Assembly (NCBI GenBank): GCA_964625535.1 | Contig: CAZVEX010000001.1 | Location: forward strand, 295 to 64,294 | Reading direction: 5' to 3' | Length of the DNA stretch: 64,000 bases | DNA from: an uncultured Gammaproteobacteria bacterium | Lineage (GTDB): Bacteria; Patescibacteriota; Microgenomatia; Daviesbacterales; UBA10151 | Shown here: positions 18,861 to 62,526 of the stretch, in pieces | Layout: every line of letters begins with the position of its first letter | How positions within the stretch are numbered: the stretch's first letter is position 1 | Notes under the pieces: model-generated | Told to the model about the DNA's origin: nothing | The model's input: the letters and a program-made list of their open reading frames with translations, nothing else | Databases searched by the model: none | Made by a program: the position numbers and the translations under genes

Positions 18861-19741
18861 ATCCGAAGATATCTTCTGGTGGCGCCAAATGATCCCACTG
18901 CTCCCACTAAACAGGCCAGCAAAATAGCAAGTATAAGCAAAAATATCATCAATACAGGGCTGGGGGGCAAAAGTTTGATTTCACCCAGGTATCCCCCTTG
19001 AATAAAGGGAGTAAAATACCAAAGCAGGATGTAAATGACCGCCCAGGCAAATGTGGCGCCCACCACTCCATAAAACATTCCTTCCAGAATAAAAGGCATT
19101 CTGATAAATGATGTTGATGCCCCCATCAGACGCATGGTTTCGATTTCATTTCGCTTAAGCCTGATCTTAAACCCGATGATCATCAAAATTTGCAGGATGG
19201 CATAAAGTATCAGGTAGGTTACAATTACTCCGCCAACGATTCTAACTACCAGGGTGGCGGTAGAGAGGTTAGCTACTACATCTTCGGGAAAGACCACATC
19301 TTCCACCACCGGTTCCTGTTTTAGGATTTCAGCTACCGGAGCTAAATCTTGCAAAGTTAGAGTGGAAACTTCTAGGGATGGGGGTAGGGTGCTGGCTGTC
19401 ACCAGTTCAACCAAGAGTGGGTCTTTGCCCTGATTAAACTTTTTATAAATTTGCAGGGCCTCTTCCCGGGAAACATATTTGGTTTTGGTGACCTGGTAGT
19501 AGCTTTTCAGGTTGTCTTCTATGGCCTGAATATCTTCTTCGGTGGTGCCGTCTTTAAAAAAGGCGATGACTTGAGGTCTTGACTCATAATATTGTAAAGT
19601 TGCTTGCAACCCGATAGAAATAAGCAGGAAACCGATCAGGGCCAAAAAGGCCGAAAACATGGCCAGGGAGGCGGCTGCGGCCTGAAAGGGGGTTCTTTTA
19701 ATGTTTCTTTTGGCAAATTTAATGTAGTTTCCCAAACTCAT
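18857..19741 (-). CDS. ftsX: cell division permease FtsX
   Basis: Four-TM topology with a large extracytoplasmic loop between TM1 and TM2. It is adjacent to and overlapping ftsE. Confidence 0.8.
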   Translation of the reverse strand: MSLGNYIKFAKRNIKRTPFQAAAASLAMFSAFLALIGFLLISIGLQATLQYYESRPQVIAFFKDGTTEEDIQAIEDNLKSYYQVTKTKYVSREEALQIYKKFNQGKDPLLVELVTASTLPPSLEVSTLTLQDLAPVAEILKQEPVVEDVVFPEDVVANLSTATLVVRIVGGVIVTYLILYAILQILMIIGFKIRLKRNEIETMRLMGASTSFIRMPFILEGMFYGVVGATFAWAVIYILLWYFTPFIQGGYLGEIKLLPPSPVLMIFLLILAILLACLVGAVGSFGATRRYLRI

Positions 19742-20412
19742 TCGTATTTACCCTCCTTAGTGTCTTTGGTGATCTTACCCGCTTTTAGAGTTATTACTCG
19801 CCGCTTCAAGGTATTGACAATTTCTTGGTTGTGAGTAGCCATCAGGATGGTGGTGCCCCAGGAGTTGATCTCATTGAGCAGCTGAATCACTCCCCAGGCT
19901 GTTTTAGGGTCTAAATCGCCGGTTGGCTCATCAGCCAAAACTATGTCGGGTTTACCCACCACCGCCCGGGCAATGACAGTGCGCTGAGCCTCCCCTCCGG
20001 AAAGTTGTCGCGGGAACAAATTCCGCCTATCCCAAATTTCCACCAGTTTTAGAGTATGTTCCACGGCCCTCCCAATTTCCTCATCGGATTTACCCAAAAC
20101 TTCCAAGGCCAGGGCCACCTGCTCAAAAACGGTCCTGTCGTCCAGTAGCTTGAAATCCTGGAAAACTACCCCCACTTTTCTCCTCAAATTTGGGATCTCA
20201 CCGTTTTTTAGTTTAGTAATGTCCATTTTATTAACAACGACTGTGCCGCTTGTGGGTATTACTTCCCGGGTTAGAATTCTCAAAAGGGTGGTTTTACCCG
20301 CTCCGGAGGGTCCAACCAAAAAGACGAACTCTCCCTGTTTAATTTCCAGGGAAATGTCATCCAGAGCGGTAGCTGAACCAAACTTTTTGAAGACTTTGTC
20401 AAATAAGATCAT
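19738..20412 (-). CDS. ftsE: cell division ATP-binding protein FtsE
   Basis: Walker A GPSGAGKTT, ABC signature LSGGEAQR and Walker B ILADEPTGDLD are present. Length is 224 aa. Confidence 0.9.
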   Translation of the reverse strand: MILFDKVFKKFGSATALDDISLEIKQGEFVFLVGPSGAGKTTLLRILTREVIPTSGTVVVNKMDITKLKNGEIPNLRRKVGVVFQDFKLLDDRTVFEQVALALEVLGKSDEEIGRAVEHTLKLVEIWDRRNLFPRQLSGGEAQRTVIARAVVGKPDIVLADEPTGDLDPKTAWGVIQLLNEINSWGTTILMATHNQEIVNTLKRRVITLKAGKITKDTKEGKYE

Positions 20413-27557: not shown

Positions 27558-28744
27558 TGAAAAAAACAGTTTCGGTTGTCCTCCCCACATATAATGAAAA
27601 AGCCAATATTGAAAAAACCGTTGACAAGGTTTTAGAGCAAGAAAAAAACTTACCCGGATGGGAAATTCACATTGTTATTGCAGATGACGTCAGGTCTTCG
27701 GATGGGACGGAAAAGATAGCCAGGGCAATTTGCCAAAAGAATAAAAGAGTGCATTTTATTAAAGCAAACCCGGGCTTGGGAGTGGGTCTTATTGAGGGTC
27801 ATCGGTATGCAATGGGAAAAATCCGTCCGGATATTTTGGCCCAGCTTGATGCGGACGGTCAGGTGGTAACAAATGTACTGGTCGATCTTGTTCAAACCGT
27901 AGAGCAGGGTTTTGATCTGGCTATCGGATCAAGATTTGTCAGGGGAGGGAAGAATCAACTTTCAATAGGGAGGAGAATTTTTACTTATGGAGCCTCACTT
28001 TTTTGTCGGGTGCTGATGGGGCCTTGGGACGTCAGGGAATTTACCAATTCCGCCAGAGCTTTTACACCCTCTCTTTTCCAAAAATTAAATTTTGACAGAC
28101 TCCCCTGGCGTGAAACCTCTTTTATTATCCAGCCGGCATTTTTGCATGAGGCAATTTTAGCGGGAGCAAAATACAAAGAAGTGCCCCTGATTTTTCGGAA
28201 CCGCCTAGAAGGTTATTCCAAAAATAAAGTTTTTAACTATACGTATGATGTTATTACCTATTGTATAGATGCCAGATTACACAAATGGGGTTTTGATATG
28301 CCCTTCTTTTATTTAACCAGAAGGGCTAAAACAATTGTCAAATTTGGTTTGGTGGGGTTTGTGGGAACATTGGTAGACTTCCTTTTTTACAAGTTATTTA
28401 TCAACCTGGGGGGTTTTCCTCCTGCCACTTCCAAAGGAATTTCCACAGAAGTTGCCATTATTAATAATTTCATTTTAAATAATTACTGGACTTTTCGCTA
28501 CAGAAAAACCAAAACTAATTTCTGGACCAAACTGGGGATTTTTAATCTGGTCAGTTTAGGGGGACTGGTGATTGGGGTTTTAATAGTTAAAGTTTTGCAT
28601 TTATACTATGGAGACGGGTTTGTAGATTTGGGGTGGAGAAGGATTGCTTACAATAACTTTTACTTTTTTGCCACCATCCCTTTTGTAATGACCTGGAATT
28701 TCTTCATGAACCACTTTATCACCTGGAAACATCAGGAAGACTAG
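27557..28744 (+). CDS. fusion of a GT2 polyprenol-phosphate sugar synthase (DPM1/ArnC/GtrB-like) to a C-terminal GtrA-like 4-TM domain
   Basis: VVLPTYNEKANI...IADDVRSSDGT...DADGQ is the GT2 DxD signature. The C-terminal ~130 aa have four helices and NNYWTFR, the GtrA-family motif. Confidence 0.75.
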   Translation: MKKTVSVVLPTYNEKANIEKTVDKVLEQEKNLPGWEIHIVIADDVRSSDGTEKIARAICQKNKRVHFIKANPGLGVGLIEGHRYAMGKIRPDILAQLDADGQVVTNVLVDLVQTVEQGFDLAIGSRFVRGGKNQLSIGRRIFTYGASLFCRVLMGPWDVREFTNSARAFTPSLFQKLNFDRLPWRETSFIIQPAFLHEAILAGAKYKEVPLIFRNRLEGYSKNKVFNYTYDVITYCIDARLHKWGFDMPFFYLTRRAKTIVKFGLVGFVGTLVDFLFYKLFINLGGFPPATSKGISTEVAIINNFILNNYWTFRYRKTKTNFWTKLGIFNLVSLGGLVIGVLIVKVLHLYYGDGFVDLGWRRIAYNNFYFFATIPFVMTWNFFMNHFITWKHQED

Positions 28745-29868
28745 TTAAAATCTGCCAAATTTGGCACAGGCGCTACATTATTGACAATGAAGTTTTGGGA
28801 ATATAAATAAATGGCTATTGCCAAAATTATCAGCAATATTTTAAATTCTTTAGATACCAGAACTTTTTCAAAGGCTATTAAAATAAAAGGGGTTATGGGG
28901 AGTAGGTATCTGCTGATGTCTCGATGGACAACCAGTGTGGATGCTGCAAGATAGGTTAAAACAAAAAAAGCCAAGGGGTATAATTTTTGTTTTATCAAAA
29001 ACATTCCGCCTAAAAACCCAAGAATAAAAATATAAATTATGTCCTCCAGCCAAATATCCCCTACCCAAAACTGGGCTTTATTAAAAACACTTAAAGGCGG
29101 AAAAGTTAAATGGATATTATCGCCGGAGTGAAAATAAGCATAAAAATCATTGTAAGTAACGCCGAACCAATAAAAAACTGCTACAAGAGTTAAGGGAATA
29201 AACACGATGGGATAGAAAGAGAGGATATATTTAAGGGACTTTTTTTGATAACCTATCCACAAGACATAGAGAGCTAAAGCTATCCCCAAAAGAATTCCAG
29301 GTGGTCTGACTAATTGGGCTAGCGCCGCAAAGAGAGCTACCGCCCAAATTTTGTTTTTTAGAAAAAAATAAATTGATAAAATAACAAAGAAGATGAAAAC
29401 AGGTTCAGGGGAACCAATAGACCTTACAATGACCCATCTGGCGGGAAGGATTAAAAATATTAAGGACAGTAAAAAAGGATTACTGGAAAGTTTAAAATCT
29501 TTAACTAAAAAGTAAAAAGCCCAAGCGCTTAAAATAGTAAAAAGCAAAGATACAAAAAGCATTGATTTTAGGAAACCCAAAAAGGGAGCAAAAAGGGAGA
29601 TAAACAAGGGATATCCCGGGAAATGAGAGGCAAAATATCCCGCAGGTTGAGTTATATGCAAGCCGGCGATCGCCTCGGGATTATAAAAGGTTTTGGCAAT
29701 AACTATATATTCCAAGCCGTCAAAGTTTCTGTAGATTATATTGAATCCATTGGAAAAATTTAGTCCCCAAAAATTTGGAAGAGAGAGAAGATGGGGAAGC
29801 CAAATCAGAAAGGTTGAGGCTAAAGTCAAAATTGCAATCAAGAAGAGATTTTTCGTTGTTTTGTTCAT
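28741..29868 (-). CDS. polytopic membrane protein, GT-C-like (PIG-V/DUF2029-like mannosyltransferase family?)
   Basis: 375 aa with ~11 TM helices. It shares an N-terminal NFDGxEY motif (NFDGLEYIVIAKTFY) with ORF 59320 (NFDGEHYLSIAIFGY). It is the only minus-strand gene in the island and lies 22 bp from the divergent next gene. Confidence 0.5.
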   Translation of the reverse strand: MNKTTKNLFLIAILTLASTFLIWLPHLLSLPNFWGLNFSNGFNIIYRNFDGLEYIVIAKTFYNPEAIAGLHITQPAGYFASHFPGYPLFISLFAPFLGFLKSMLFVSLLFTILSAWAFYFLVKDFKLSSNPFLLSLIFLILPARWVIVRSIGSPEPVFIFFVILSIYFFLKNKIWAVALFAALAQLVRPPGILLGIALALYVLWIGYQKKSLKYILSFYPIVFIPLTLVAVFYWFGVTYNDFYAYFHSGDNIHLTFPPLSVFNKAQFWVGDIWLEDIIYIFILGFLGGMFLIKQKLYPLAFFVLTYLAASTLVVHRDISRYLLPITPFILIAFEKVLVSKEFKILLIILAIAIYLYSQNFIVNNVAPVPNLADFN

Positions 29869-29890: not shown

Positions 29891-32029
29891 ATGTCTATTA
29901 AAAATCTTTCTGTTTTTTTTCCGGCATTTAATGAGGAGGGAAGTATTGAAAATACCGTTATCAAGGCATCTGAAGTTTTACAGGATCTTCGCTTAAATTA
30001 TGAGATTATCATAGTTGATGACGGATCTACAGACAAAACTGCCCAAATTGCTGACAGTTTAGCCAAATCAAATCCTAAAATCAGGGTCATCCATCATTCC
30101 AAAAATTTAGGTTACGGGGAAGCATTAAGGTCTGGTTTTTACAATGCCAAATATGACACCATAGTCTATACCGACGGAGACGGGCAGTTTGATTTCTCGG
30201 AAATAAATAAGTTTTTGGAAAAAATTGAGGATCATGATTTGGTAATAGGCTATCGCATCAAAAGGCAGGACCCCTTTTTTAGAATTTTATTTAAAAAGGG
30301 CTGGAAACTTTCTCTTCTAACCTTTTTTGGATTGACTCTAAAAGATGTGGACTGTGGTTTTAAAATGATCCGCAAATCCGTTTTGGAAAATATCCCCCAT
30401 TTGGAATCCACCAGGGGAGCGATGATTAATGCGGAACTGGCTATTAAGACCAAAAAATACGGATTTACGCTGACCCAGGTGGGCGTAAATCATTACCCAA
30501 GACTTTCCGGTAAGCCAACCGGAGCAAGTATCCGGGTAATCGTTAAATCTTTTTTGGATCTTCTAAGGCTGTGGTGGAAACTTAAAGATCAAAAAATTTA
30601 CTTTATTTCACTGTTGGGAATACTGGTTCTGGCAACATTTTTGAGGCTTTATAAAATTGAGGAATACATGATTTTTTTGGGAGATCAGGGAAGAGATGCC
30701 ATCATTGTTAAAAACATGATTGACGATCTTCATTTTCCTGCCATTGGTCCTCCCACCTCCGTGGGCAATATTTATCTTGGTCCGCTTTATTATTATATGA
30801 TGCTGCCCCCGATGGTTTTGACCAATTTTAATCCGGTTTCGGCGGCGGCGGCGGCGGCTTTGGTTGGGGTGGCCACGGTCTTTCTGGTTTATTATTTGGG
30901 CAAAGTTTGGTTTGGCAGGGGATCCGGTTTGCTGGCTGCATATCTTTATGCAATCAGCCCGGTTACTGTCAATTATTCAAGATTTTCCTGGAACCCCAAT
31001 CCGGCGCCTTTTTTTGCTCTTCTTGCCATTTTGGGCATGATGAAACTGCAAAAAAGCGGTAATTTCCTGTGGCTTATTTTAACAGGTCTAGCTTTGGCTG
31101 CCGCCTTGCAGATGCACTATCTTGCTTTGATTCTGGCAGCAGTTATTGCAACGCTTTGGCTTTATCAGGCCCTGGCGAAAAACAAAAAGAAAAATTTTCT
31201 AAAAGGGACATTGCTTGGTCTGGCAGCTTTTTTGCTGGTTATGTCTCCTCTTTTTTGGTTTGATCTTCGGCACAACTTTTTAAATTATCAGGCCGCTGTC
31301 GCGCTTTTCGGCAAAGGCGAGGCAGTAAGTATAAATCTATTTTCTAACCTTGGCAGGATTCCGGAAATTTATAACAATGCTTTGATTGGAAGATATATGG
31401 CAGGGGAGAATGCATTTTTGGCGGCTTTTTTGTCTTTGACTGTTCTAGCGCTTTTAGTTTATTGGTTTATTAAAAGAAAGATTATTTTGGCAGTTTGGAT
31501 AATAGTTGGTTTATTTGGACTCTCTTTTTATCAAAATGATATTTATGATCACTATCTGGGGTTTTTAAACCCGGCTCCTTTTATCCTCTTGGGATCTTTG
31601 ATCGCTTTAAACAAAAAACGGATAACAGTGGGGCTACTGCTTTTAGTGGCTGTTTTGACAGTTTTGAATTTGCAAAAAAATCCTCTTTTATCCCCTCCCC
31701 AAAACCAACTTCAAAGGACCCAAAATCTGGCCAAATTTATTATCGGGGAATCAAATGACAAACCGTTTAACTTTGCCCTTCTTGCCAAAAATAACTATGA
31801 TTCGGCCTATCAGTTTTATTTGGAAGTTTATGGATATGAGTCCAAAAAATTACCTTTTGAGAAAACTATGCAGCTTTTTGTAGTTTGCGAAGATGAAGTG
31901 TGCGATCCAATTTACAGTCCCAAGCACGAGATTGCGGCTTTTGGCTGGACAAAAATTGAAGAGGAGTGGCAAGTAGAAGGATTAAGAGTTTTTAAACTGG
32001 CGCATAATCCGGAGGAAAACCGTCAATGA
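29891..32029 (+). CDS. bifunctional fusion: an N-terminal GT2 polyprenol-phosphate sugar synthase (DPM1-like) and a C-terminal GT-C membrane glycosyltransferase of the 13276/14750 family
   Basis: The N-terminus VFFPAFNEEGSI...IIVDDGSTDKT...YTDGDGQ is GT2. From ~aa 235 the motifs FLGDQGRDAI...GPPTSVGNIYLGPLYYYMM match those of the 13276 and 14750 proteins. Length is 712 aa. Confidence 0.75.
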   Translation: MSIKNLSVFFPAFNEEGSIENTVIKASEVLQDLRLNYEIIIVDDGSTDKTAQIADSLAKSNPKIRVIHHSKNLGYGEALRSGFYNAKYDTIVYTDGDGQFDFSEINKFLEKIEDHDLVIGYRIKRQDPFFRILFKKGWKLSLLTFFGLTLKDVDCGFKMIRKSVLENIPHLESTRGAMINAELAIKTKKYGFTLTQVGVNHYPRLSGKPTGASIRVIVKSFLDLLRLWWKLKDQKIYFISLLGILVLATFLRLYKIEEYMIFLGDQGRDAIIVKNMIDDLHFPAIGPPTSVGNIYLGPLYYYMMLPPMVLTNFNPVSAAAAAALVGVATVFLVYYLGKVWFGRGSGLLAAYLYAISPVTVNYSRFSWNPNPAPFFALLAILGMMKLQKSGNFLWLILTGLALAAALQMHYLALILAAVIATLWLYQALAKNKKKNFLKGTLLGLAAFLLVMSPLFWFDLRHNFLNYQAAVALFGKGEAVSINLFSNLGRIPEIYNNALIGRYMAGENAFLAAFLSLTVLALLVYWFIKRKIILAVWIIVGLFGLSFYQNDIYDHYLGFLNPAPFILLGSLIALNKKRITVGLLLLVAVLTVLNLQKNPLLSPPQNQLQRTQNLAKFIIGESNDKPFNFALLAKNNYDSAYQFYLEVYGYESKKLPFEKTMQLFVVCEDEVCDPIYSPKHEIAAFGWTKIEEEWQVEGLRVFKLAHNPEENRQ

Positions 32030-37549: not shown

Positions 37550-39004
37550 ATGGATCCTACCGAGGAAATCAATATTGAAATGGTTAAGCGAAGAACAGTC
37601 AGCGGAGCAGCCATTTTAACAGTTAGAACTTTTTTGATGCAAATAGTATCTTTAATAGCGACCGCGCTTTTAACGTTTTTTTTAAATCCTGCGCAATATG
37701 GAACTTTTTTCTTGGTTTCCGCAGTTATTAGTTTTTTGGCATATTTTGGCGACATAGGTTTTGCGGCCAGCTTAATTCAAAAAAAAGATAAATTGCAGGA
37801 TATTGAACTACGAACTATTTTTACTACTCAACAAACACTGGTGTTTTTTCTTATCGCCATAGTTTTTATATCTACTCCTTACTTAAAAAATTTTTATCAT
37901 TTTGACGATAGCGCAATCTATCTTCTTTGGGCTCTTGCTTTTTCGCTTCTTCTTTCATCACTGAAGACTATACCGACTGTTTTATTGGAGAGAAAACTGG
38001 AGTTTAATAAATATGTTATTCCCCAGATTCTGGAAGTTTTAGTATTTAATGCTACTGCGGTATATCTTGCTTGGCGAGGTTTCGGGGTGACTAGTTTTAC
38101 TGTGGCAGTAATACTGCGGGGGGTTGTGGGATTGCTTTCAACATATGCAGTTTCGCCGTGGATTCCCGGGTTTGCATTTTCTCCCCCTTCACTTAAATCT
38201 TTGCTCAAGTTTGGGATTCCTTATCAAGTAAACACTTTTCTTGCCATGATTAAGGACGACGGAATGACTCTTTTTTTAGGAGGGATTTTAGGATCCTCGG
38301 GGATAGGTCTTTTGGGATGGGCTCAAAAATGGGCTTTTTCACCCTTGCGTTTTTTTATGGACCAGGTGATCAAAGTAACTTTTCCCGCTTTTTCCCGGTT
38401 GCAGGATGACAAAAAAGAGCTATCCCTAGCTTTGTCAAAATCAATCTTTTTCATTTGTCTTTTGGTCTTTCCGTCCTTGGCTTTTTTGATACTAGTTGCT
38501 CCAACGCTGGTAGAAATAATTCCAAAGTACAGTAAATGGAGTCCGGCGCTTTTGGCTTTGACTTTTCTTTCGGTCACCTCCGCTTTGGCAGCGATAACTA
38601 CTCCCATAACTAACGCTTTCAATGCAATTGGAAAAATATCAGTCACTTTTAGATTAATGATGATGTGGACCGTTTTAACTTGGCTTTTTGTACCTGCTTT
38701 GGCGCTGATTTATGGGGTAAGTGGCGCAGCTTTTGGCTTTAGCTTGGTAGGAGCGAGTTCGATTATTGCAATGATTCTAGCCTTAAGATATATAGAGATA
38801 AATTATTTGGAGATTATTGGTAAGCCTGCAGTTGCAACGGTGACAACGGGAGGAGTAGTCTTTCTGATAAGAAGCGTTGTCTCAACCTCGCTATTACAAG
38901 TCGTTTTGATGGCGATGGGCGCGCTTATCGTATACGCCCTGACCGTTTTTATAATAGAACCTAAAATTTTATTTTACCTTAAATTGAGAAAACAAAATGT
39001 TTAA
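37550..39004 (+). CDS. Wzx-like oligosaccharide flippase (MOP/polysaccharide biosynthesis protein family)
   Basis: 484 aa with 12-14 TM helices. An N-terminal cytoplasmic stretch is followed by the composition typical of Wzx/RfbX. Confidence 0.6.
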   Translation: MDPTEEINIEMVKRRTVSGAAILTVRTFLMQIVSLIATALLTFFLNPAQYGTFFLVSAVISFLAYFGDIGFAASLIQKKDKLQDIELRTIFTTQQTLVFFLIAIVFISTPYLKNFYHFDDSAIYLLWALAFSLLLSSLKTIPTVLLERKLEFNKYVIPQILEVLVFNATAVYLAWRGFGVTSFTVAVILRGVVGLLSTYAVSPWIPGFAFSPPSLKSLLKFGIPYQVNTFLAMIKDDGMTLFLGGILGSSGIGLLGWAQKWAFSPLRFFMDQVIKVTFPAFSRLQDDKKELSLALSKSIFFICLLVFPSLAFLILVAPTLVEIIPKYSKWSPALLALTFLSVTSALAAITTPITNAFNAIGKISVTFRLMMMWTVLTWLFVPALALIYGVSGAAFGFSLVGASSIIAMILALRYIEINYLEIIGKPAVATVTTGGVVFLIRSVVSTSLLQVVLMAMGALIVYALTVFIIEPKILFYLKLRKQNV

Positions 39005-42000
39005 ATTATTCTACATAATTTTTTTTCTTCTGTTTTTTCTTCCTCACCCGACTTATGCCCAAGGACCTTCATTTATATCCATAGTCAATCCTGTCAGAGG
39101 AGATGATTTTTGGCAAGAGGGGCAAACTGCGGAAAAGGCTGTACTGGGCCAGATAGAAATTTTGCAAAAGAATAATCTTCCGGCAACTTTTCTGCTGCGT
39201 TTTGATGCTTTATCTAAACTAACAATCGTAGAGGCGCTTAAAGATGATCAAAATTTTGAGCAAGGTTTATTTTTGGAAGTGACTCCTACGCTAACTAATG
39301 CGGCCGGGGTAAACTATCGCAAATCCGAAAATTGGCATGATGCCGGTAGCGCTTTTTTGACAGGTTATGTAAGAGGAGAGAGGGAAAAACTAATAGATTC
39401 AGCCTTTGAAAGATTTAAAAGCATATTTGGATTCTTTCCCACGTCAGTGGGAGCTTGGTGGATTGACGCTTACTCCCTGGATTATATGCAAAAAAAATAT
39501 GGTATCAGCGCCTCTTTAATTGTGTCCGACCAATACTCAACAGATAATTATCAGATCTGGGGACAATATTTTTCTACTCCTTATTATCCTTCCAGAAAAA
39601 ATGCCCTGTACCCTGCCCAGACTATTGCAAACAAGCTGCCGGTGGTAATGTTGCAGTGGGCCCCGAGAGATCCTATTAACTCTTATGGAAGTGGAGTTAT
39701 GGAGAGTACTTTTAGCGTCCAGGCAAATGATTATCTTGATTATCATAATCTGGATACAAAATATTTTTCATCCCTTATCGATCTTTATACAAAACAACCA
39801 CTTAATCAATTTGCGCATCTGGTAATAGGTCTTGAAAATTCCTACTCCTGGGAAAAATATCAAGCAGAATACCAAAATCAAATGCAAGTTTTGTTGGAAA
39901 AAAGAAAGAAAGGACAACTTTCTGTTGTCACCATGAAAGATTTTGCTGTTTGGTACAAACAAAATTTTCCCGCTCTGTCTCCGGCCCAGATTATAGTGGC
40001 CGATGACCCGCTGGGATCTTTTAAAAAAGCGGTTTGGTTTATGAATCCATATTATCGGGCCGGCTGGTTTCTCAATCAGGACGGTTCTGTCTTTAGGGAT
40101 ATCAGGCAATACATTGACGGGGAAGAGGAGTTATGTTTTCAAGGCCGTTGCAGTAGTGTTAATTTTGCCACCTCCGCCACCAGAGTTTTGGACGAGGTGA
40201 GCTTCGGGCATAAATGGTTGATAGATGAGGGTAAAGTCTCCGATTTTAAAGCTACAAAGCAGGGTGAGAATTTTATCATCGGTTACAAAAACGAGGCAGG
40301 CAATGTAAAGAAAATAGAATTTTTGCCAAGAGATATTAGCATAGATGGAAAAATATCCTCCATTGACGGAGCCATACTTGAGGTGACAAAGCACCAATTG
40401 GATCAGCAAAAAGATAGGATTGATTTAGCAGCAGGCCCATTTAGGATGTCTTTGCCAAGTGCTGTTTTCAAAATTTTTGCATTCCTGGCATTTTTAGTCA
40501 TTGGAACTCTGGTCCCGGGATTTTTGATGATCAAGAAGGTGGCTCCCGAAGAGTCACCTTTTTGGCAAAGAATTTTTCTTTCGCTAGTTTTGGGGTTTGT
40601 CCTGGCAACCCTACTTTTTTATCTTCTTTCTCTTATTAAATTTAGACAGGGAATTTTCATTTACTTATTTATAAATCTTGCATTGTTTATCAAGATCAGA
40701 AAACAATTTTTTTCCAATATTGCTTTAAAATTTAAGGATAAATTTAGTATTATTTTGGTTTGTTTGATTGGATCCGGTACAGTATTCCAACAGTTACCTG
40801 TTTTCAAAAACGGTCTTAATTTTCCCTATGGCTTAGGGCTTTGGGGGCCGAATACACATGACGGTTTATGGCATGTTAGTTTAATAAATCAGCTCATTAA
40901 ATCTACGCCGCCGGAAAATCCCATTTTTGCCGGGGAAATTTTAAAAAATTATCATTACTTTTATGATTTACTGGTGGCCGTCACCAGCTTTGTAACTCGC
41001 ATTTCCGTTTTAGATCTGTTATTCAGATTTTACCCGGTAATCTTTTCACTGCTTTTAGGGACCGGTACATACTATCTTGTTAAATCCGTGTTCAAAATCC
41101 AAAACAATTTGCAAGGTAAACTGGCAGTTTTATTTTCTCTGTATCTTACATATTTTGCCGGAAGCTTTGGGTGGGTTGTGGAGTTTATTAAGTTTAGGCA
41201 CTTGGGAGGTGAATCTGCTTTTTGGGCGAATCAATCAATTTCTTTTAACTTAAACCCTCCGTTTGCCATTTCGCTTCTCATTGTCATCGCCATATTTGGG
41301 ATTTTGCCAAACCTGAAAAATAAGTTATCTGTAATTGTGATAACCGTCCTTGCGGGAAGTCTAATTGCTTTTAAGGCTTATGCGGCAATTTTAATTTTAC
41401 TAAGTCTTGCTACAGTGGGTATTTTGAAAAGAAACCTACAATATGTGTATGTGTTTTTCTTTAGCGCTTCTTTATCCGCAATACTATTGTTTTTAACTTT
41501 TAATATTGGCGAGCAGTTGATAATTTTTTCTCCTTTTTGGTTTATTCACTCCATGATTGACTCCCCTGACAGGGTGGGGTGGGCCAGGATTACTCTGGCT
41601 AGGATGGCAGGATGGGAAAGCGGCAATTGGTTTAAATTTTTAGCATCAGAAGCAATCAGTTTATCACTCTTTATATTAGGTAATTTAGGAACAAGAGTAG
41701 TTGCCTTATTTAGTTTAACGAGAATTAATAAAATAGTAAAAGACAAAAATTATTTATTTATTTTTGTTTTCGCAACGCTTTCGCTTGTTATTCCGATTTT
41801 ATTTATTCAAGCAGGCAACCCTTGGAATACAATTCAATTTCTTTATTACTTTCTATATATATCAGCCGTGGTAGGAGGAGTCGTATTTGTTAGAATTATT
41901 CAAATGAATAGGATATTTGCATTTATTATTATTGCTATTTTTCTGGTAGTCACACCGATAAATTCTTGGGCTACTGCCAACGGATATTTAAGCTATCAGC

Positions 42001-42413
42001 CTCATGCTTTAATAACAAATTCAGAGTTACAAGCATTGGATTATCTTGCAGACCAACCGGACGGGGTGGTGTTGACATTCCCCTATGACGCAAAATTGAA
42101 AAATAAAATAGCCGAACCATGGCCAATTGTTGCTTATGACAGTACTTCTTACGTATCCGCCCTGTCCACAAAGGCTGTTTTTGTCGAAGATGAACCGCAG
42201 AACCAAATTCTTTTGACAGAGTATAAAAAAAGATTAGTAGCCGCAAAAGATTTTTTTACCAGATTTCCAGCTCTTGCCAATAACTTCTTAGGGGACAACA
42301 ATATAAAATATGTTTATCTTCCAAAAATATTTAATGTGACTTTAGATGATACAAAATTAAGTCTGAATTTAATTTTTGAAAATCAGGAAATATTAATATA
42401 TGAGGTAAAATAG
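38997..42413 (+). CDS. 1138-aa fusion: signal peptide, a ~450-aa extracytoplasmic domain of unknown function, and a ~650-aa GT-C-like polytopic membrane domain
   Basis: The N-terminal domain (GAWWIDAYSLDYMQKKYGISASLIVSDQYSTDNYQIWGQYFSTPYYPS, LQWAPRDPINSYG) is paralogous to the start of the gene at 62523. The membrane domain (GLWGPNTHDGLWHVSL...NPIFAGE...YHYFYDLL) is paralogous to the ORF at 42416. Confidence 0.7.
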   Translation: MFKLFYIIFFLLFFLPHPTYAQGPSFISIVNPVRGDDFWQEGQTAEKAVLGQIEILQKNNLPATFLLRFDALSKLTIVEALKDDQNFEQGLFLEVTPTLTNAAGVNYRKSENWHDAGSAFLTGYVRGEREKLIDSAFERFKSIFGFFPTSVGAWWIDAYSLDYMQKKYGISASLIVSDQYSTDNYQIWGQYFSTPYYPSRKNALYPAQTIANKLPVVMLQWAPRDPINSYGSGVMESTFSVQANDYLDYHNLDTKYFSSLIDLYTKQPLNQFAHLVIGLENSYSWEKYQAEYQNQMQVLLEKRKKGQLSVVTMKDFAVWYKQNFPALSPAQIIVADDPLGSFKKAVWFMNPYYRAGWFLNQDGSVFRDIRQYIDGEEELCFQGRCSSVNFATSATRVLDEVSFGHKWLIDEGKVSDFKATKQGENFIIGYKNEAGNVKKIEFLPRDISIDGKISSIDGAILEVTKHQLDQQKDRIDLAAGPFRMSLPSAVFKIFAFLAFLVIGTLVPGFLMIKKVAPEESPFWQRIFLSLVLGFVLATLLFYLLSLIKFRQGIFIYLFINLALFIKIRKQFFSNIALKFKDKFSIILVCLIGSGTVFQQLPVFKNGLNFPYGLGLWGPNTHDGLWHVSLINQLIKSTPPENPIFAGEILKNYHYFYDLLVAVTSFVTRISVLDLLFRFYPVIFSLLLGTGTYYLVKSVFKIQNNLQGKLAVLFSLYLTYFAGSFGWVVEFIKFRHLGGESAFWANQSISFNLNPPFAISLLIVIAIFGILPNLKNKLSVIVITVLAGSLIAFKAYAAILILLSLATVGILKRNLQYVYVFFFSASLSAILLFLTFNIGEQLIIFSPFWFIHSMIDSPDRVGWARITLARMAGWESGNWFKFLASEAISLSLFILGNLGTRVVALFSLTRINKIVKDKNYLFIFVFATLSLVIPILFIQAGNPWNTIQFLYYFLYISAVVGGVVFVRIIQMNRIFAFIIIAIFLVVTPINSWATANGYLSYQPHALITNSELQALDYLADQPDGVVLTFPYDAKLKNKIAEPWPIVAYDSTSYVSALSTKAVFVEDEPQNQILLTEYKKRLVAAKDFFTRFPALANNFLGDNNIKYVYLPKIFNVTLDDTKLSLNLIFENQEILIYEVK

Positions 42414-42415
42414 TG

Positions 42416-44434
42416 ATGTTGATAATACAGACCTTGTTTCTTGGTTTACTTTTCCTGGTCATTTCGTGGTTTATTTTCTATAACATCGGTTACGCCGTAT
42501 TAGCTTTCAAAAGAAAAGATCTTGAGGATCAGGAGATTATCGCTTTGGCTTTTTCTTTGGGGTTGGTCGTATTTCTGGGAATAGCCCTTTTTTTGGGGCT
42601 CGTTAATTTAAGGTGGCTTCTTTTGCCGCTTGTTTTAGTAGCCGGTTTTTATAATCTGATTAAATACAAAAAAGAAGTTATCGCGCCATGGAAGATCTTT
42701 ATCCGGAGAAAGGTTTTGTTTTGGCTGATTATATTGGGAATTTTAGTCCAGGGGTTTATCAATTTCCCAAGCGGACTTCGCTATTCCGAAGGATTGCTTT
42801 TTTGGAGTTCTCAAGGCCACGACGGCATATGGCATGTCAGTTTAATGGAGGAGATTAGAAAAAATTTTCCTCCCCAAAACCCTATTTTTTCCGGGGAGAA
42901 GCTTTATAATTATCATTATCTGGTTGATGTTTTGATGGGCGATTTCTATCGGATTTTCCCGTTTTTTTCGCCGCTCGACCTGTATTTTAGATTTTTTCCA
43001 ATAATTTTCTCTTTCCTTTTTGGTCTCTGTGTTTTCTCATTTGTCAAAAGATGGCAAGCTAATTACTCAGTGGGATATTTGGCAGTATTTTTTACATATT
43101 TTACCGGAAGCTTCGGTTATGTGGTAACTTTTTTCAGGAATAAAAATTTATTCGGGGGGGAAACGGTTTTTTGGGCCTCTCAAGAAAACACTTTACTGGG
43201 TAACCCACCTCATGCCATTGCCCATATTTTTCTGGTGGCAATACTGCTTTGTCTGTTGTTGTATTTTAGTCAAAGGAAGATATTTTGGTTAATTATCGCT
43301 TTTATTTTGGGAAGTTTACTGTCCGGCTTTAAGGTTTCCGGTGGATTTGTCATGTTGACAGGAGTAGCAGCTGCAGCATTAGTGGATTTAATCTTTAATA
43401 GGAAATGGCACACAACTTTGCTTGCCGTGGTTCTGGGGTTTTCCAATTTTATAACTTTTAAAATGATGACCTCCAAAGAGGCAGCCTCATTTTTAATGTT
43501 TTTGCCCTGGTGGTTTATCAGAACCATGGTGGTGGATAAACTGGGTTGGATGGATCTGGAACTTCGCCGGCAGCACTATCTTTCCAAAGGGACATGGCAT
43601 GCCTATTTGAGAGTGTTTCAGCTTGAAGTAACAGCCTTTTTAATTTTTTTAGTGGGCAATTTGGGAATGAGAATATTGGGATTTTACGGATTGATAAAAG
43701 ATTTATTAACCAAAAAGTTTATCAAAAGTCCTATTGACGCAATGCTTTTTGTGTCGATGTTAACGGGATTTTTGATGGTTATTATCTTTGTGCAAAAGGG
43801 GATTATTTATAACAACATTCAATTTATCCAGTATTCTCTGCTGATCATGGGATTTTACGCTGCAGTATCAACTTATCAATTGCTTATGCGTTTTAAGAAA
43901 AAGCTGATAAGGATTATTATTTTGTTAATGATAGTTTTATTTTCGGTGCCGACAGTGATAGGAAATTTGAATGAGTTTTACGGGCCTGGCAGAAAGCCCC
44001 TGGCTATCATCAGTAATCGGCAGATTCAAGCATTGAGTTTTTTAAAAGCAAACAGTGAACAAAATGACATTGTTTTAACTGTGCCCTTTAATAAATATTT
44101 AAAAGATCGATACAAGAGTGAACCCAGGCCAATAAATGCCTGGTATTCTACGGCCTATGTTTCGGCGCTCACGGCGAGAAATACCTATTTTACTTCGGAG
44201 GAGCAGGCTTTAATTACCGGATACCCCACCGATAAAAAACTGGCGAAGGTAGAAGAGTTTTTTGCGCAAACGGATTTTTCCTACAATAAAAAATTTCTGG
44301 CAGAAGAAGGTATAAAATATTTATATGTTGTTAAAGATGAATTGGATAAACCGTTAAGCGTTCAAGAAAATAATTTGGAAATTATGTTTGAAAATACGGA
44401 GATAATTATCTTTAAAGTTAACCAAAGAGTATGA
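42416..44434 (+). CDS. GT-C-like polytopic membrane protein, stand-alone paralog of the membrane half of 38997..42413
   Basis: LFWSSQGHDGIWHVSL...NPIFSGE...YHYLVDVL is present. The C-terminal ...LEIMFENTEIIIFKV parallels ...LNLIFENQEILIYEV. Confidence 0.65.
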   Translation: MLIIQTLFLGLLFLVISWFIFYNIGYAVLAFKRKDLEDQEIIALAFSLGLVVFLGIALFLGLVNLRWLLLPLVLVAGFYNLIKYKKEVIAPWKIFIRRKVLFWLIILGILVQGFINFPSGLRYSEGLLFWSSQGHDGIWHVSLMEEIRKNFPPQNPIFSGEKLYNYHYLVDVLMGDFYRIFPFFSPLDLYFRFFPIIFSFLFGLCVFSFVKRWQANYSVGYLAVFFTYFTGSFGYVVTFFRNKNLFGGETVFWASQENTLLGNPPHAIAHIFLVAILLCLLLYFSQRKIFWLIIAFILGSLLSGFKVSGGFVMLTGVAAAALVDLIFNRKWHTTLLAVVLGFSNFITFKMMTSKEAASFLMFLPWWFIRTMVVDKLGWMDLELRRQHYLSKGTWHAYLRVFQLEVTAFLIFLVGNLGMRILGFYGLIKDLLTKKFIKSPIDAMLFVSMLTGFLMVIIFVQKGIIYNNIQFIQYSLLIMGFYAAVSTYQLLMRFKKKLIRIIILLMIVLFSVPTVIGNLNEFYGPGRKPLAIISNRQIQALSFLKANSEQNDIVLTVPFNKYLKDRYKSEPRPINAWYSTAYVSALTARNTYFTSEEQALITGYPTDKKLAKVEEFFAQTDFSYNKKFLAEEGIKYLYVVKDELDKPLSVQENNLEIMFENTEIIIFKVNQRV

Positions 44435-59360: not shown

Positions 59361-60495
59361 AACCCTACATATTATATTAATATTTTTGGTATGGAGAATA
59401 GCATTGGTGGTGGTATTGATTTTCTCCATAAGTTTTATCCCCCTTCAATACAAAGATAGATTTTTAGGAGGTGGGCCGATTAATTACCACCTAGCCCCCG
59501 AGCTTTTTTCCTGGGCAAATTTTGATGGTGAGCATTACTTATCAATTGCCATATTTGGTTATAAAGAAAAGGAGCAGGCGTTTTTTCCCGTTTATCCGGG
59601 GATGATGTCTTTTCTGGCCAAACCTTTTTCACCGGATTTACTCTCGTTTCTTGTTAATTCGACAACCGCGGGTTTAATTATTTCTAATTTATCTTTCCTG
59701 CTGGCTTTAATAATTCTTTGGAATTTAATTAAAATAGACTATTCAAAAAAAATCGCCCTTTTTACTCTCGCAACTGTTCTTTTATTCCCAACTTCTTTTT
59801 ATTTCGGCGCAGTTTACAGCGAATCTTTATTTCTATTGTTATCTGTTAGTTCATTTTATTTAGCAAGAAAAGGTCGTTTTCTTAGCGCGTCACTTTTAGG
59901 AGCTGTAGCCTCTGCCACCAGAGTATTTGGTGTATTGCTTCTGGTGGCATTATTAATAGAAGCTTGGGAACAAAAGGTAAAACTTTCAAAATCATTTTGG
60001 ATTTTCCTGATTCCCATAGGCCTTTTAATTTATATGACGTATCAATATTTTTCCGTAGGAAATCCTTTTGCCTTTTACAATTTGCAAGGTCAGGTAGGCG
60101 AACAACATCAATCAGGGGTGGTTTTGCTGCCTCAAGTATATTTTCGTTATATAAAAATGCTTTTGACTGTTGACCCCACTAACCCTATTTATCAGACAAT
60201 AGTTCTGGAACTTTTAGTGGGTATAATTTTCTTTTTACTGCCCTTATACGGCTATTTTAAAAAAGTGAGATTGTCTTATGTTGCATATGCCATGTTGGGA
60301 TTTTTATTACCTACTATAACAGGTAGTTTTTCTTCAGTGCCCAGATATGTTATCATCCTTTTTCCCTCTTTTTTGATTCTGGCAATGATCATAAATAAAC
60401 TACCAAATGCGTTAAAGATTGCTATTTTAAGCTTTTCCGCTTTGGTGCTTATTGCGGAAACAGCGCTTTTCTTAAGGGGGTATTGGGTAGCATGA
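59320..60495 (+). CDS. GT-C-like polytopic membrane protein (PIG-V/DUF2029-like), related to the 28741 gene. An alternative start lies at 59341.
   Basis: It shares NFDGEHYLSIAIFGY with the 28741 gene's NFDGLEYIVIAKTFY. It has ~10 TM helices. Confidence 0.5.
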   Translation: MKKQNWSMKKLNPETLHIILIFLVWRIALVVVLIFSISFIPLQYKDRFLGGGPINYHLAPELFSWANFDGEHYLSIAIFGYKEKEQAFFPVYPGMMSFLAKPFSPDLLSFLVNSTTAGLIISNLSFLLALIILWNLIKIDYSKKIALFTLATVLLFPTSFYFGAVYSESLFLLLSVSSFYLARKGRFLSASLLGAVASATRVFGVLLLVALLIEAWEQKVKLSKSFWIFLIPIGLLIYMTYQYFSVGNPFAFYNLQGQVGEQHQSGVVLLPQVYFRYIKMLLTVDPTNPIYQTIVLELLVGIIFFLLPLYGYFKKVRLSYVAYAMLGFLLPTITGSFSSVPRYVIILFPSFLILAMIINKLPNALKIAILSFSALVLIAETALFLRGYWVA

Positions 60496-61760
60496 AGACA
60501 TTTTTTAGATTAATTAACCATCCATTATTTTCCGGAAGCTTGGTTATGGTTGTCGGAAGTAATTTGGTTAATTTTTTAAATTATTTATATCATCTGATTA
60601 TTGGTAGAATACTTGGTCCATCGGACTATGGCGAGCTTGCCGCCATTATATCTTTGATAGGGCTTTTGAGTATTGTTCCGGCTTCAATAAATCTGGTAAT
60701 TATCAAATATGTTTCCTCGACAAAGGATGACGCAAAACTTACCAATTTAATAAGCTGGCTGAAGTCTGGTACTATCAAAGCTTCTTTGATTCTATTTTTT
60801 GCCATCCTTGCAGCATCCCCCTTTATCGCCTCGTTTTTGCACATAAATAAATTAATTTATCTGATACTCATCGCCGTATCTTATTTGATTTCCTTTCAAT
60901 CTTTGTTTTACAGATCAATCTTGCAAGGTTTACTAAAATTTAAAGAGATGATAATCAGTATTTTGGCAGAAAATATGGTCAAGCTTGTTGTTAGCGTACT
61001 ACTCATCTATTTTGGATTTCGGGTAGGCGGTGCCGTATTTGCTTTCCTGGTTGCGGCTCTAGTAGGTTGGTATATAACAATTTTTTATCTAAAGATTAAG
61101 ACAAAAAAGGTTGATAATCCCCCTGATGTAAAAGCTATGGCTTTGTTTACTATACCGGTTATAATTCAGTCTTTTGCTATGACTTCTGTTTATTCGTCCG
61201 ATGTGATTTTGGTTAAGCATTTTTTTTCCTCTCATGATGCCGGGATTTATGCTTCGCTTTCAACTTTGGGAAAAATAATTCTTTTCGCAACCGGTCCTAT
61301 TGGAGCCGTGATGTTTCCTTTAGTTTCAAAACGCAGCGCCAAAGGAGAAAATTATAAAAGAGTATTTATATTTAGCTTTTTAACCACTCTATCTGTGGCA
61401 ACAATGATTTTGGTAATTTACTGGTTATTTCCTGTTATGGCGATTAGTTTACTTTACGGATCGCTTTTTCTTGAAGCTGCCAATCTTTTATTCTGGTTTG
61501 GCATTTTTATTACCTGCTTTACCCTATCTTTTCTAATAGTAAACTACAATCTGTCTTTGGGTAAAACTAAGGTTGTGATCTTCCCGGCTATTGGCGCCCT
61601 GTTGCAAATTATACTTATCTGGATTTATCACCAGAGTCTATTTACGGTTATACTGATTTCAATTATAGTCTCCGCTTTACTACTTGTCGCTTTGCTTATA
61701 TACTCTATCTATTCTAACAATGGACATAAAGTTGATTTCAGTCATAGTACCGGCGTATAA
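60492..61760 (+). CDS. Wzx-like flippase (MOP family), second copy
   Basis: ~420 aa with 12+ TM helices. The ATG overlaps the upstream TGA. Confidence 0.55.
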   Translation: MKTFFRLINHPLFSGSLVMVVGSNLVNFLNYLYHLIIGRILGPSDYGELAAIISLIGLLSIVPASINLVIIKYVSSTKDDAKLTNLISWLKSGTIKASLILFFAILAASPFIASFLHINKLIYLILIAVSYLISFQSLFYRSILQGLLKFKEMIISILAENMVKLVVSVLLIYFGFRVGGAVFAFLVAALVGWYITIFYLKIKTKKVDNPPDVKAMALFTIPVIIQSFAMTSVYSSDVILVKHFFSSHDAGIYASLSTLGKIILFATGPIGAVMFPLVSKRSAKGENYKRVFIFSFLTTLSVATMILVIYWLFPVMAISLLYGSLFLEAANLLFWFGIFITCFTLSFLIVNYNLSLGKTKVVIFPAIGALLQIILIWIYHQSLFTVILISIIVSALLLVALLIYSIYSNNGHKVDFSHSTGV

Positions 61761-62526
61761 ACAAGAAATTACTATTGCCAGAGATTTGCAAAGAATCAAA
61801 GAAGTTCTGGATAAGCTACGCTACCCCAGCGAACTTATTTGTGTGATTGACGGTAAAGCTGATAAGACTTTTAAAGAAGCCTCAAAGTTTGCCGAAAGAT
61901 GCAACAATGTCAAAGTTATAGGTTATGATCATAACAAGGGAAAAGGTTATGCCATCCGTTTTGGGATTGCCGAAAGTAAAGGAGATATCATCGGGTTCAT
62001 TGACGCGGGAATGGATCTTAACCCACGAGGTATCCTGCTGCTATTGGAGCAATTTGAATGGTATAATGCAGACATAATAGTTGGCTCCAAGAGACACCCT
62101 GTTTCTAAAGTTTATTATCCGTGGCAGAGGAAAATTCTTTCATTTAGTTATCAGATACTGGTCTGGTTGCTTTTTGGATTAAAGGTAAAAGATACTCAAG
62201 TGGGAATGAAATTTTTCAAAAGAGAAGTTTTGGAAAAAGTTCTTCCCCGACTTTTGGTCAAACGCTTTGCTTTTGATGTGGAAATGCTGGCTGTTGCCAA
62301 TGCTTTAAACTATAAAAGAATATATGAAGCGCCCGTTGATATAAAACTTCGCTTTGGAGGTACCTCGACTATTACCAGCCAAAAATTTTTAAGAACAGTC
62401 TTAGCAATGCTTATGGATACTCTGGCAATTTTTTATAGACTGAAAATATTGGGATATTATTCCGATAAAAACAAAAGAAAGTGGAGATTTGATCCCGAGT
62501 TAAATTTTAGGGTAAATATCGGATGA
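61720..62526 (+). CDS. GT2 glycosyltransferase (DPM1/ArnC-like)
   Basis: ISVIVPAYKQEITI...VIDGKADKT...FIDAGMD is present. The start at MDIKLIS overlaps the flippase 3' end in another frame. Confidence 0.7.
   Translation: MDIKLISVIVPAYKQEITIARDLQRIKEVLDKLRYPSELICVIDGKADKTFKEASKFAERCNNVKVIGYDHNKGKGYAIRFGIAESKGDIIGFIDAGMDLNPRGILLLLEQFEWYNADIIVGSKRHPVSKVYYPWQRKILSFSYQILVWLLFGLKVKDTQVGMKFFKREVLEKVLPRLLVKRFAFDVEMLAVANALNYKRIYEAPVDIKLRFGGTSTITSQKFLRTVLAMLMDTLAIFYRLKILGYYSDKNKRKWRFDPELNFRVNIG

Follow-up and report, generated by a model that had tools for sequence, protein, structure and literature searches.

The window (the whole 64-kb stretch of DNA that was analysed) contains an intact gene at 38997-42413, which starts with ATG, lies on the + strand like every feature described below, and encodes a fusion protein of 1138 aa. 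Two paralogs share parts of this protein: a membrane-only gene at 42413-44434 and a second barrel-domain gene at 62523-64000, cut by the window end. A sequence-only reading of this DNA had picked out the same ORFs (38997, 42416, and a frame open from 62523 to the window end), and all are present; so are the six motifs that it quoted (A154/C158, A178/C182, A220/C224, A620/B135, A641/B156, and A652/B167, where A is ORF 38997, B is ORF 42413/42416, and C is the 62523 protein), except that A reads THDG, not GHDG. The fusion protein begins with MFK, a hydrophobic run, and TYA/QG, a typical signal peptide (aa 1-21, 38997-39059; residues 15-21 have pLDDT <50), which agrees with the signal-peptide-led domain of that reading and is probably cleaved after TYA. 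Its best 120 homologs are 1111-1176 aa long, cover 98-100% of the query, and are 57-73% identical to it, and complete fusion genes (1019-1190 aa) were found in 63 genomes, each representing a different species. The sequence-only reading had allowed that the 1138-aa ORF might be two genes joined through a missed stop near 40.4 kb, an artefact of assembly or annotation; because more than 120 full-length homologs occur across many independent assemblies and 63 species-level genomes carry the complete gene, this is ruled out, and the confident single-chain AlphaFold model (pLDDT 92.3, pTM 0.86) also speaks against it, while nothing favours it for this ORF; one related flippase-fusion polyprotein, P0377, known from a single 8.8-kb contig, could itself be such an artefact.

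The signal peptide is followed by a DUF3863-like, predicted extracytoplasmic 7/8-stranded beta/alpha barrel (aa 22-330, 39060-39986) and, behind it, a beta-sandwich subdomain (aa 331-470, 39987-40406) recognized from model strands at 331-455, Foldseek, and conservation. The AlphaFold model of this N-terminal domain (pLDDT 90.6, pTM 0.92) has the same fold as the DUF3863 reference structure 3LM3 (BDI_3119 of Parabacteroides distasonis) across barrel and sandwich, with Foldseek alignments of 423-430 columns to its 434-residue chain at 16-18% identity. The sandwich is probably the counterpart of the C-terminal portion of the 3LM3 chain, which we take to be DUF3864 in Pfam. 3LM3 is a lone chain of 449 residues, whereas the barrel in the window is linked to membrane glycosyltransferases by a tether or by fusion. 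The earlier reading could assign the soluble half to no named family; 3LM3, its closest structural relative, was deposited as an uncharacterized protein, and literature searches on DUF3863, PF12979, BDI_3119, and 3LM3 returned nothing relevant. ORF 38997 has no match to the Pfam DUF3863 profile (PF12979) at E up to 0.1, and the score of the 62523 protein, 17.6 bits (E 0.0018), falls short of the 27-bit gathering threshold; many homologs carry precomputed PF12979 matches, flagged weak where a strength is given.

Across 150 diverse representatives drawn from every architecture, R34, E94, Q179, D183, W221, R224, E280, and D368 are 100% conserved. Those in the barrel, R34 through E280, sit in the model just past the points where successive beta-strands end, on the side that in barrels of this kind usually forms the active or binding face, and in the sandwich the invariant D368 is joined by W347, R354, and D399 at 98-99%. 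The barrel has also been joined independently to PMT_2-type GT-Cs, in P0480, P0493, and a Curtissbacteria cluster (P0444); in P0480 and P0493 it is placed between TM blocks of the PMT_2 enzyme, recalling the loop-inserted MIR domain of PMT.

The transmembrane core (aa 486-995, 40452-41981) has a GT-C fold with 14 membrane-length helices in the pLDDT 92 model, where the sequence-only reading had expected 12 or more, and hydropathy marks the same segments. The core is structurally similar to solved GT-C enzymes, with STT3A/B and AglB, catalytic subunits of OST, as top matches, and by our helix count it differs from them in three extra N-terminal helices ahead of the first large outer loop. Single-sequence searches of Pfam, NCBIfam, and PDB (phmmer) gave no matches for ORF 38997 or 42413, and a Pfam scan of 42 membrane-family members returned noise only (VKGC_lumenal_dom and DUF6541 at E >0.02). 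Pfam PMT_2 (PF13231) has no match at E up to 10 in either ORF, the 42 family members, or homologs named by UniRef, which automatically calls some of them 'Glycosyltransferase RgtA/B/C/D-like domain-containing protein', and when the membrane family was compared by hhalign with the seven PMT_2 paralogs in the window, the probability was only 16%. Pfam, NCBIfam, and hhalign to the window PMT_2 proteins tie the core to no GT-C family by sequence; the GT-C-like character noted earlier is borne out by the fold. By sequence the core belongs to none of the STT3/AglB/PglB, ALG12/ALG9, AftA/AftB/AftD, PMT, and ArnT families, and it lacks the DxD and WWDYG motifs: no DxD occurs anywhere in ORF 38997 or 42413, neither WW[DE][YFW]G nor WWD is present, and the sole WWxD lies in the N-terminal barrel. 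With WWDYG missing and the Pfam STT3 profile (PF02516) without a match, a bona fide OST was rejected; the Wzy_C profile likewise found nothing in ORF 38997 or 42413. Literature searches on CPR GT-C glycosylation returned nothing relevant.

The first large loop of the core (aa 604-654, 40806-40958), predicted to be extracytoplasmic, carries HDG(L/I)WH with D622, NPIF(A/S)GE, and NYH. Within it, D622, G623, W625, H626, P638, P642, N651, Y652, and H653 show conservation of 95% or more in fusion and membrane-only proteins alike, and D137, the equivalent of D622, is invariant in 42/42 membrane-only sequences. Altogether 63 core residues reach at least 95% in both families, among them D622, H626, D657, D673, R677, E739, K793, R869, and R900. 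By its position and conservation, D622 may be catalytic, making this the candidate catalytic loop. Barrel, D622 loop, and C-terminal domain would all lie outside, since the protein has a signal peptide, an even number of helices (14), and 18 K+R inside compared with 9 outside when hydrophobic cores are taken as helix limits (DSSP helix limits made the count uninformative).

The protein ends in a predicted extracytoplasmic alpha/beta domain (aa 996-1138, 41982-42413 including the stop codon), delimited by hhalign and model secondary structure and common to all three paralog families (fusion, membrane-only, and 62523-type). This kinship is visible only by profile-profile comparison: pairwise BLAST of the tails is not significant (E about 0.06-0.08), whereas local hhalign relates the soluble-type tail to the membrane-only tail (96.6%, E 4.9e-10) and to the fusion tail (97.0%, E 1.2e-10), and the membrane-only tail to the fusion tail (99.9%, E 2e-37).

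The paralogy of A, B, and C is far beyond chance. The membrane-only paralog consists of a GT-C core and C-terminal domain without the barrel and has 673 aa from a GTG at 42413; the public gene call, P0241, has 672 aa, matching the ATG at 42416. Its membrane half aligns with that of the fusion (A586-1137 with B101-669) at 33% identity (E 1e-74), as expected from the earlier claim that this half recurs alone. It has at least 120 homologs of ~670 aa, and in 27 of the 63 genomes the gene directly follows the fusion. The soluble half also recurs, at 39% identity (E 2e-102) between A2-492 and the 62523 protein, but the latter is not the purely soluble paralog that had been supposed. Its full-length form, P0121 (671 aa, 100% identical across the 492 aa within the window), comprises a signal peptide, the barrel and sandwich, a two-helix hairpin, and a ~120-aa C-terminal domain, so that the gene, on the question raised earlier, does continue into a membrane segment beyond the window, but not into a GT-C core. 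As with P0001 and P0241, the longest contig of P0121 measures 192,519 bp. The two barrel copies were said to bracket ~23 kb of the island; the spacing of ~23.5 kb holds, but there is no sign that it means anything.

The fusion gene is closely linked to a Wzx-type (MOP family) flippase gene (37550-39004; Pfam Polysacc_synt_3 E 1e-51, Polysacc_synt E 1.9e-21), whose 3′ end overlaps its start by 8 nt. In 60/63 genomes the fusion is preceded by a homologous flippase gene that ends no more than 50 nt before it, making this flippase-GT-C pair near-obligately adjacent; in P0377 flippase and fusion even form one polyprotein. A second Wzx-type flippase (60483-61760; Polysacc_synt E 2.7e-23, Polysacc_synt_3 E 7.6e-19) heads a second cassette, in which a GT2 glycosyltransferase (61684-62526; Glycos_transf_2 E 3.4e-21) lies between the flippase and the second barrel gene. 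Loci of Daviesbacteria and Woesebacteria keep this order, and in L003 and L004 a GT2 likewise stands between flippase and barrel gene. The island also encodes GT2, GT2+GtrA, GT4, and nucleotide-sugar enzymes, and about 17 GT-C enzymes fall within the window.

The fusion is a gene of uncultured Daviesbacteria-type (CPR/Patescibacteria) bacteria that encodes a three-module envelope enzyme, and it probably helps build a cell-surface glycan. Our preferred reading, to which we give a probability of roughly 0.6, makes it the GT-C enzyme of an extracytoplasmic glycosylation system that is coupled to a flippase, with an acceptor-binding or editing domain built in. The three modules would be a secreted, membrane-tethered DUF3863-like barrel with its beta-sandwich, of the glycoside-hydrolase/deacetylase superfamily; a 14-helix GT-C core whose first large outer loop presents the invariant D622 of HDGxWH; and a small outer C-terminal domain. 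Neighbouring GT2 and GT4 enzymes would make a sugar or oligosaccharide linked to polyprenyl phosphate, the Wzx-type flippase from the gene just upstream would carry it across the membrane, and the GT-C core would hand the flipped sugar to its acceptor, a glycan or protein of the surface. The barrel, whose pocket of Arg, Glu, Asp, and Trp is invariant, would hold the acceptor or product and may edit it too, and the membrane-only paralog at 42413 and the core-less paralog at 62523 could represent the same machine in pieces.

Several known systems bear on this reading. EmbC and PMT, the latter with its MIR domains, are GT-Cs with extracytoplasmic accessory domains, but we know of no GT-C for which an N-terminal domain of glycoside-hydrolase or carbohydrate-esterase fold has been described. 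The fusion follows the same logic as AftD with its carbohydrate-binding modules (PMC8035078), namely a GT-C core with an outer acceptor-recognition domain. Systems of a GT-A polyprenyl-phosphate-sugar synthase, a flippase (GtrA- or Wzx-type), and a GT-C have been described, as have extracellular acceptor-binding domains on large GT-Cs, and separate acceptor-binding partners have been speculated for small GT-Cs (PMC8035078). The window has the same component set as CsbB/GtcA/YfhO and the S. pyogenes system with its Wzx-type flippase GacK (GT2, GT2+GtrA, Wzx-type flippases, and many GT-Cs); different from such systems are the near-obligate adjacency of flippase and GT-C genes (60/63), the CPR host, and the accessory, which is a DUF3863-like barrel and not a carbohydrate-binding module. 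Unlike the accessory domains of AftD, EmbC, and PMT, the barrel has an enzyme-superfamily fold and a fully conserved charged pocket, which suggests possible catalysis.

A catalytic barrel could polymerise or transfer and trim: it might act, independently of metal, as a glycoside hydrolase or transglycosylase that uses a carboxylate pair to cleave or remodel the GT-C product. We consider this possible, though not probable, since the invariant carboxylates could not be matched to the catalytic residues of GH57 or GH38, the Asp of the WWxD motif (D157) is only 87% conserved, D157 and D178 are both absent from 3LM3, and the two invariant arginines are just as compatible with a barrel that binds an anionic ligand bearing phosphate or carboxylate. 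Alternatively, the GT-C core could be OST-, ligase-, or Wzy-like, moving a Wzx-flipped polyprenyl-diphosphate oligosaccharide en bloc or polymerising it, instead of transferring single sugars from polyprenyl-monophosphate donors. The STT3A/B and AglB structural matches, the adjoining MOP/Wzx flippase, and a layout resembling that of OST, with an outer domain at the C-terminus, all fit such an enzyme, as does the finding of no Wzy_C/O-antigen ligase or LCP family among window ORFs of at least 150 aa; we nevertheless hold it to be rather doubtful. The two ideas can be combined into a CPR-specific, Wzx-coupled terminal enzyme, in which an OST-like GT-C would polymerise or ligate the flipped oligosaccharide en bloc in place of the Wzy, ligase, or LCP enzymes not detected in these islands, and the barrel would be a carboxylate-based glycan-cleaving or transglycosylating domain, a proposal that we think unlikely. 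Least plausible among these is a barrel acting as a CE4/ArnD-like de-N-acetylase or deformylase on the lipid-linked sugar or glycan, before or after transfer. The sequence-only reading likened the soluble domain to a glycoside hydrolase or carbohydrate esterase, and the barrel does belong to the glycoside-hydrolase/deacetylase superfamily, but it lacks the motifs and metal-binding histidines of CE4/NodB, HP0310-like, PuuE-like, and ArnD proteins: a scan found none of the four CE4 motifs (TFDD, H[ST]xxH, RxPY, and DxxDW), and no histidine is conserved family-wide in the 150 representatives (H114 reaches 43%), so a His-His-Asp metal site is excluded. A canonical CE4 deacetylase was rejected on these grounds, and any such activity seems very improbable.

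To our knowledge, the envelopes of CPR/Patescibacteria are almost unexplored experimentally, while their genomes spend a large coding share on GT-C enzymes such as the roughly 17 seen here. The genes described form a GT-C family that has no name so far, and they show flippase and GT-C genes to be tightly conserved as a pair. DUF3863, a structural-genomics orphan, gains a genomic context: its relatives here are recurrent accessory modules of membrane glycosyltransferases, covalently joined to two GT-C types and also found as a separate tethered protein. The latter is a natural case of the 'separate acceptor-recognition partner' that has been suggested, as a speculation, for the small GT-Cs of Gram-positive bacteria. 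Should the barrel be catalytic, it would represent a new carbohydrate-active enzyme family, and if the reading that combines a catalytic barrel with an OST-like core is true, it would provide the first function for DUF3863/3LM3 together with a new GT-C family.

The fusion gene (38997–42413, plus strand) encodes a reading frame of 1138 aa and is followed by a membrane-only paralog (42413–44434, plus strand), which has 673 aa from a GTG start or 672 aa in the public gene call P0241, in agreement with the ATG start at 42416 taken by the sequence-only reading. A third gene runs as an open frame on the plus strand from 62523 to the window end. Translation of the window returns all three frames as that reading had them, and the motifs it quoted are all found in the protein pairs it named, except that GHDG is THDG in the fusion. 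Both paralogies are far above chance: residues 586–1137 of the fusion align with 101–669 of the membrane-only protein at 33% identity (E 1e-74), bearing out the recurrence of the membrane half, and residues 2–492 are 39% identical to their counterpart from the 62523 gene (E 2e-102). The soluble half does recur, but not as a stand-alone protein: the full-length database match P0121 (671 aa; 100% identity across the 492 aa that fall inside the window) is membrane-tethered and has three parts, in which the soluble domain is followed only by a pair of hydrophobic helices and a C-terminal domain of ~120 aa, not by the 500-aa membrane core into which the gene might have continued. The relationship among the C-terminal tails of the three paralogs is not visible by pairwise BLAST; in profile-profile comparison the P0121 domain is homologous to the tails of ORF 38997 and ORF 42413 (96.6–97.0% probability, E 5e-10 to 1e-10). 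This domain, previously missed, is common to all three families, which therefore relate as N-domain, core, and C-domain (ORF 38997), core and C-domain (ORF 42413), and N-domain, hairpin, and C-domain (62523 gene).

The possibility that the fusion is an assembly artefact with a missed stop near 40.4 kb is refuted by its 120 best database homologs, which come from many independent assemblies (the named ones mostly Candidatus Daviesbacteria or Microgenomates) and are 1111–1176 aa long with 98–100% query coverage and 57–73% identity, and by 63 complete fusion genes (1019–1190 aa) among the 80 loci fetched from 195 with relatives in species-representative genomes; the fusion is therefore real. Many species-representative MAG records with the Daviesbacteria-type gene (L007, L009, L010, L012, and others) are titled 'uncultured Gammaproteobacteria bacterium isolate binchicken_...', probably a placeholder or wrong taxonomy.

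AlphaFold2 models of the fusion, built from a 139-sequence alignment, are of high confidence and reach a mean pLDDT of 92.3 and pTM of 0.86 at full length, and 90.6 and 0.92 for the N-domain modelled alone. The full-length model comprises a barrel of alternating strands and helices (aa 22–330), a beta-sandwich (aa 331–455), fourteen long helices (aa 486–995), and a small alpha/beta domain (aa 996–1138). The signal peptide, an even number of helices, and the K+R bias (18 inside versus 9 outside) lead us to infer that the barrel, the 604–654 loop, and the C-terminal domain are extracellular. The GT-C-like fold guessed for the membrane half matches solved GT-C structures (Foldseek E 1.4e-6 to 7e-3), and the structural matches of the modelled domain, to STT3B (18.7), AglB (18.4), ALG12 (17.7), AftA (16.8), Pmt4 (15.7), ArnT and PglB (15.1), ALG9 (14.6), AftB (14.0), and AftD (13.2), single out none of these families. 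Searches for a named GT-C family came back empty: Pfam and NCBIfam scans of the membrane domain give no match, and hhalign gives 16% probability between the membrane family and the window's PMT_2 paralogs. The GT-C nature was already hinted at by automated annotation, since UniRef names some homologs 'Glycosyltransferase RgtA/B/C/D-like domain-containing protein', a match that Pfam scans do not reproduce. D622, which is conserved in the fusion and membrane-only families within an HDGxWH motif on the 604–654 loop, lies where a GT-C catalytic acid would be expected and is a candidate for that role. Strictly defined, the fusion is not an oligosaccharyltransferase, because a motif scan of the protein finds neither DxD nor WWDYG. 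The WWIDA of the barrel (aa 154–158) is superficially like the WWDYG signature, a coincidence, as it sits in the N-terminal barrel and not in the C-terminal domain.

For the soluble domain, the suspected likeness to glycoside hydrolases or carbohydrate esterases holds at the level of fold, with the correction that a named relative exists, solved but functionally orphan. This is PDB 3LM3 (BDI_3119 from Parabacteroides distasonis, a 'putative glycoside hydrolase/deacetylase' and the DUF3863 reference structure), matched by Foldseek at E 2.3e-14 with a TM of 0.65–0.67 over 423 columns versus a 434-residue chain, and by the soluble-domain family profile against its sequence at E 4.9e-5. The Pfam DUF3863 model does not match ORF 38997 and scores the 62523 paralog at 17.6 bits, below the cutoff of 27; the domain is therefore a distant DUF3863 relative that falls short of membership under the curated cutoff. 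Within the paper library that was searched, nothing mentions DUF3863, PF12979, or BDI_3119, or ascribes a function to 3LM3. An exhaustive profile search finds 1168 cluster representatives (560 at E 1e-30 or lower), and among the best 150 of these, which cover every architecture, R34, E94, Q179, D183, W221, R224, E280, and D368 are 100% conserved, W154, D178, D245, W347, R354, and D399 at least 94%, and H114, the sole candidate histidine, 43%. In the full-length model those of the conserved residues that belong to the barrel sit just past the ends of consecutive strands, the usual position of an active or binding site in barrels of this kind. A canonical metal-dependent deacetylase is excluded, because a motif scan of the fusion finds none of the four CE4 motifs sought (TFDD, H[ST]xxH, RxPY, DxxDW), and H114 is poorly conserved. 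The barrel could be a carboxylate-based hydrolase that cuts a glycan or a glycan- or anion-binding pocket, both of which are possible.

Among the search representatives the barrel also occurs alone, and in proteins of ~760 aa (the P0446–P0501 class, ~750–850 aa) it precedes an unassigned membrane module of 5–7 TM helices, with no match to Pfam or to our own profile of the GT-C core. In P0480, P0493, P0444/P0508 (a Candidatus Curtissbacteria cluster), and P0474 it stands behind the N-terminal part of a PMT_2-type GT-C, and in P0480 and P0493 it has 4–5 further TM helices behind it, as if it had been inserted into an outer loop. That the barrel has been joined independently to two GT-C families argues for its role as an accessory module dedicated to extracytoplasmic glycosyltransfer. 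In P0377 (1639 aa, on an 8.8 kb Logan contig), a Polysacc_synt_3 flippase is in frame with the barrel and GT-C fusion; this could be a frameshift or assembly artefact or a Rosetta-stone fusion supporting functional coupling of flippase and barrel/GT-C, and its cluster has one member.

Linkage to flippases, missed by the sequence-only reading, is seen in the gene neighborhoods. The window's first Wzx-type flippase gene shares 8 nt with the start of ORF 38997, and in 60 of the 63 complete fusion loci a Wzx-like gene of the same orientation ends no more than 50 nt upstream of the fusion, a nearly universal pairing; the membrane-only paralog lies directly downstream in 27/63 (for example, L001). 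The core-less paralog sits in a cassette ordered GT4, multi-TM protein (PIG-V-like in the window), Wzx flippase, GT2, barrel protein, GT4, an order shared with another Daviesbacteria genome and, with one small ORF added before the last GT4, with Woesebacteria; in five of eight loci with the core-less paralog, a Wzx gene is found no more than 2.5 kb upstream. Judged by gene content, the window from ~23.7 kb onward is a glycan-assembly island, with nucleotide-sugar enzymes, GT2, GT2+GtrA, GT2+PMT_2, GT4, and two Wzx-type flippases. About 17 GT-C-like ORFs, including the two studied here, fall within ~50 kb (~10100–60500), of PMT_2, PTPS_related/YfhO, GT87/PIG-M-like, and PIG-V-like types, some below Pfam cutoffs. 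One ORF (29891–32029, plus strand, 712 aa) joins a GT2 domain (aa 7–167) to a PMT_2/PMT-type GT-C (aa 298–457); a single chain would then hold both a polyprenyl-phosphate-sugar-synthase-like enzyme and the GT-C that uses its product. The sole minus-strand ORF of at least 150 aa within 22.8–62.5 kb (28741–29868, 375 aa) has no Pfam family. A cell-division-type cluster (17715–20412, minus strand) encodes an FtsE-like ABC ATPase, FtsX including its extracellular domain, and a peptidase of the M23 type that bears a PcsB-like coiled coil, and a class I (archaeal-type) lysyl-tRNA synthetase (2154–3719, plus strand) adjoins seryl-tRNA synthetase and SecA, a housekeeping context that places the island in the chromosome.

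The best-supported model, by analogy, is a transmembrane glycosylation system of several components coupled to a flippase, of the kind described for Gram-positive cell-wall polymers: a GT-A lipid-sugar synthase, a GtrA- or Wzx-type flippase, and a GT-C (PMC8035078). The component set of the island resembles this one. In that framework, acceptor-binding domains outside the cell are part of large GT-Cs, and the authors of the review speculate that small GT-Cs need a separate acceptor-recognition partner (PMC8035078). The donor could be one sugar on a lipid phosphate or an oligosaccharide that has been flipped. An oligosaccharyltransferase-like, Wzy-replacing role for the GT-C core is possible, because no Wzy_C/O-antigen ligase or LCP family is detected in window ORFs of at least 150 aa; nor is an initiating phosphoglycosyltransferase. 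The observations of the sequence-only reading are confirmed and its fold intuition largely stands, with three corrections: the soluble domain's relative, the tethered paralog, and the overlooked C-domain and flippase linkage. What is new is a GT-C family without a name that carries a DUF3863-like accessory domain. Under the flippase-coupled model, ORF 38997 would represent an all-in-one form, and the 62523 protein paired with either ORF 42413 or the PIG-V-like GT-C would be the split form.
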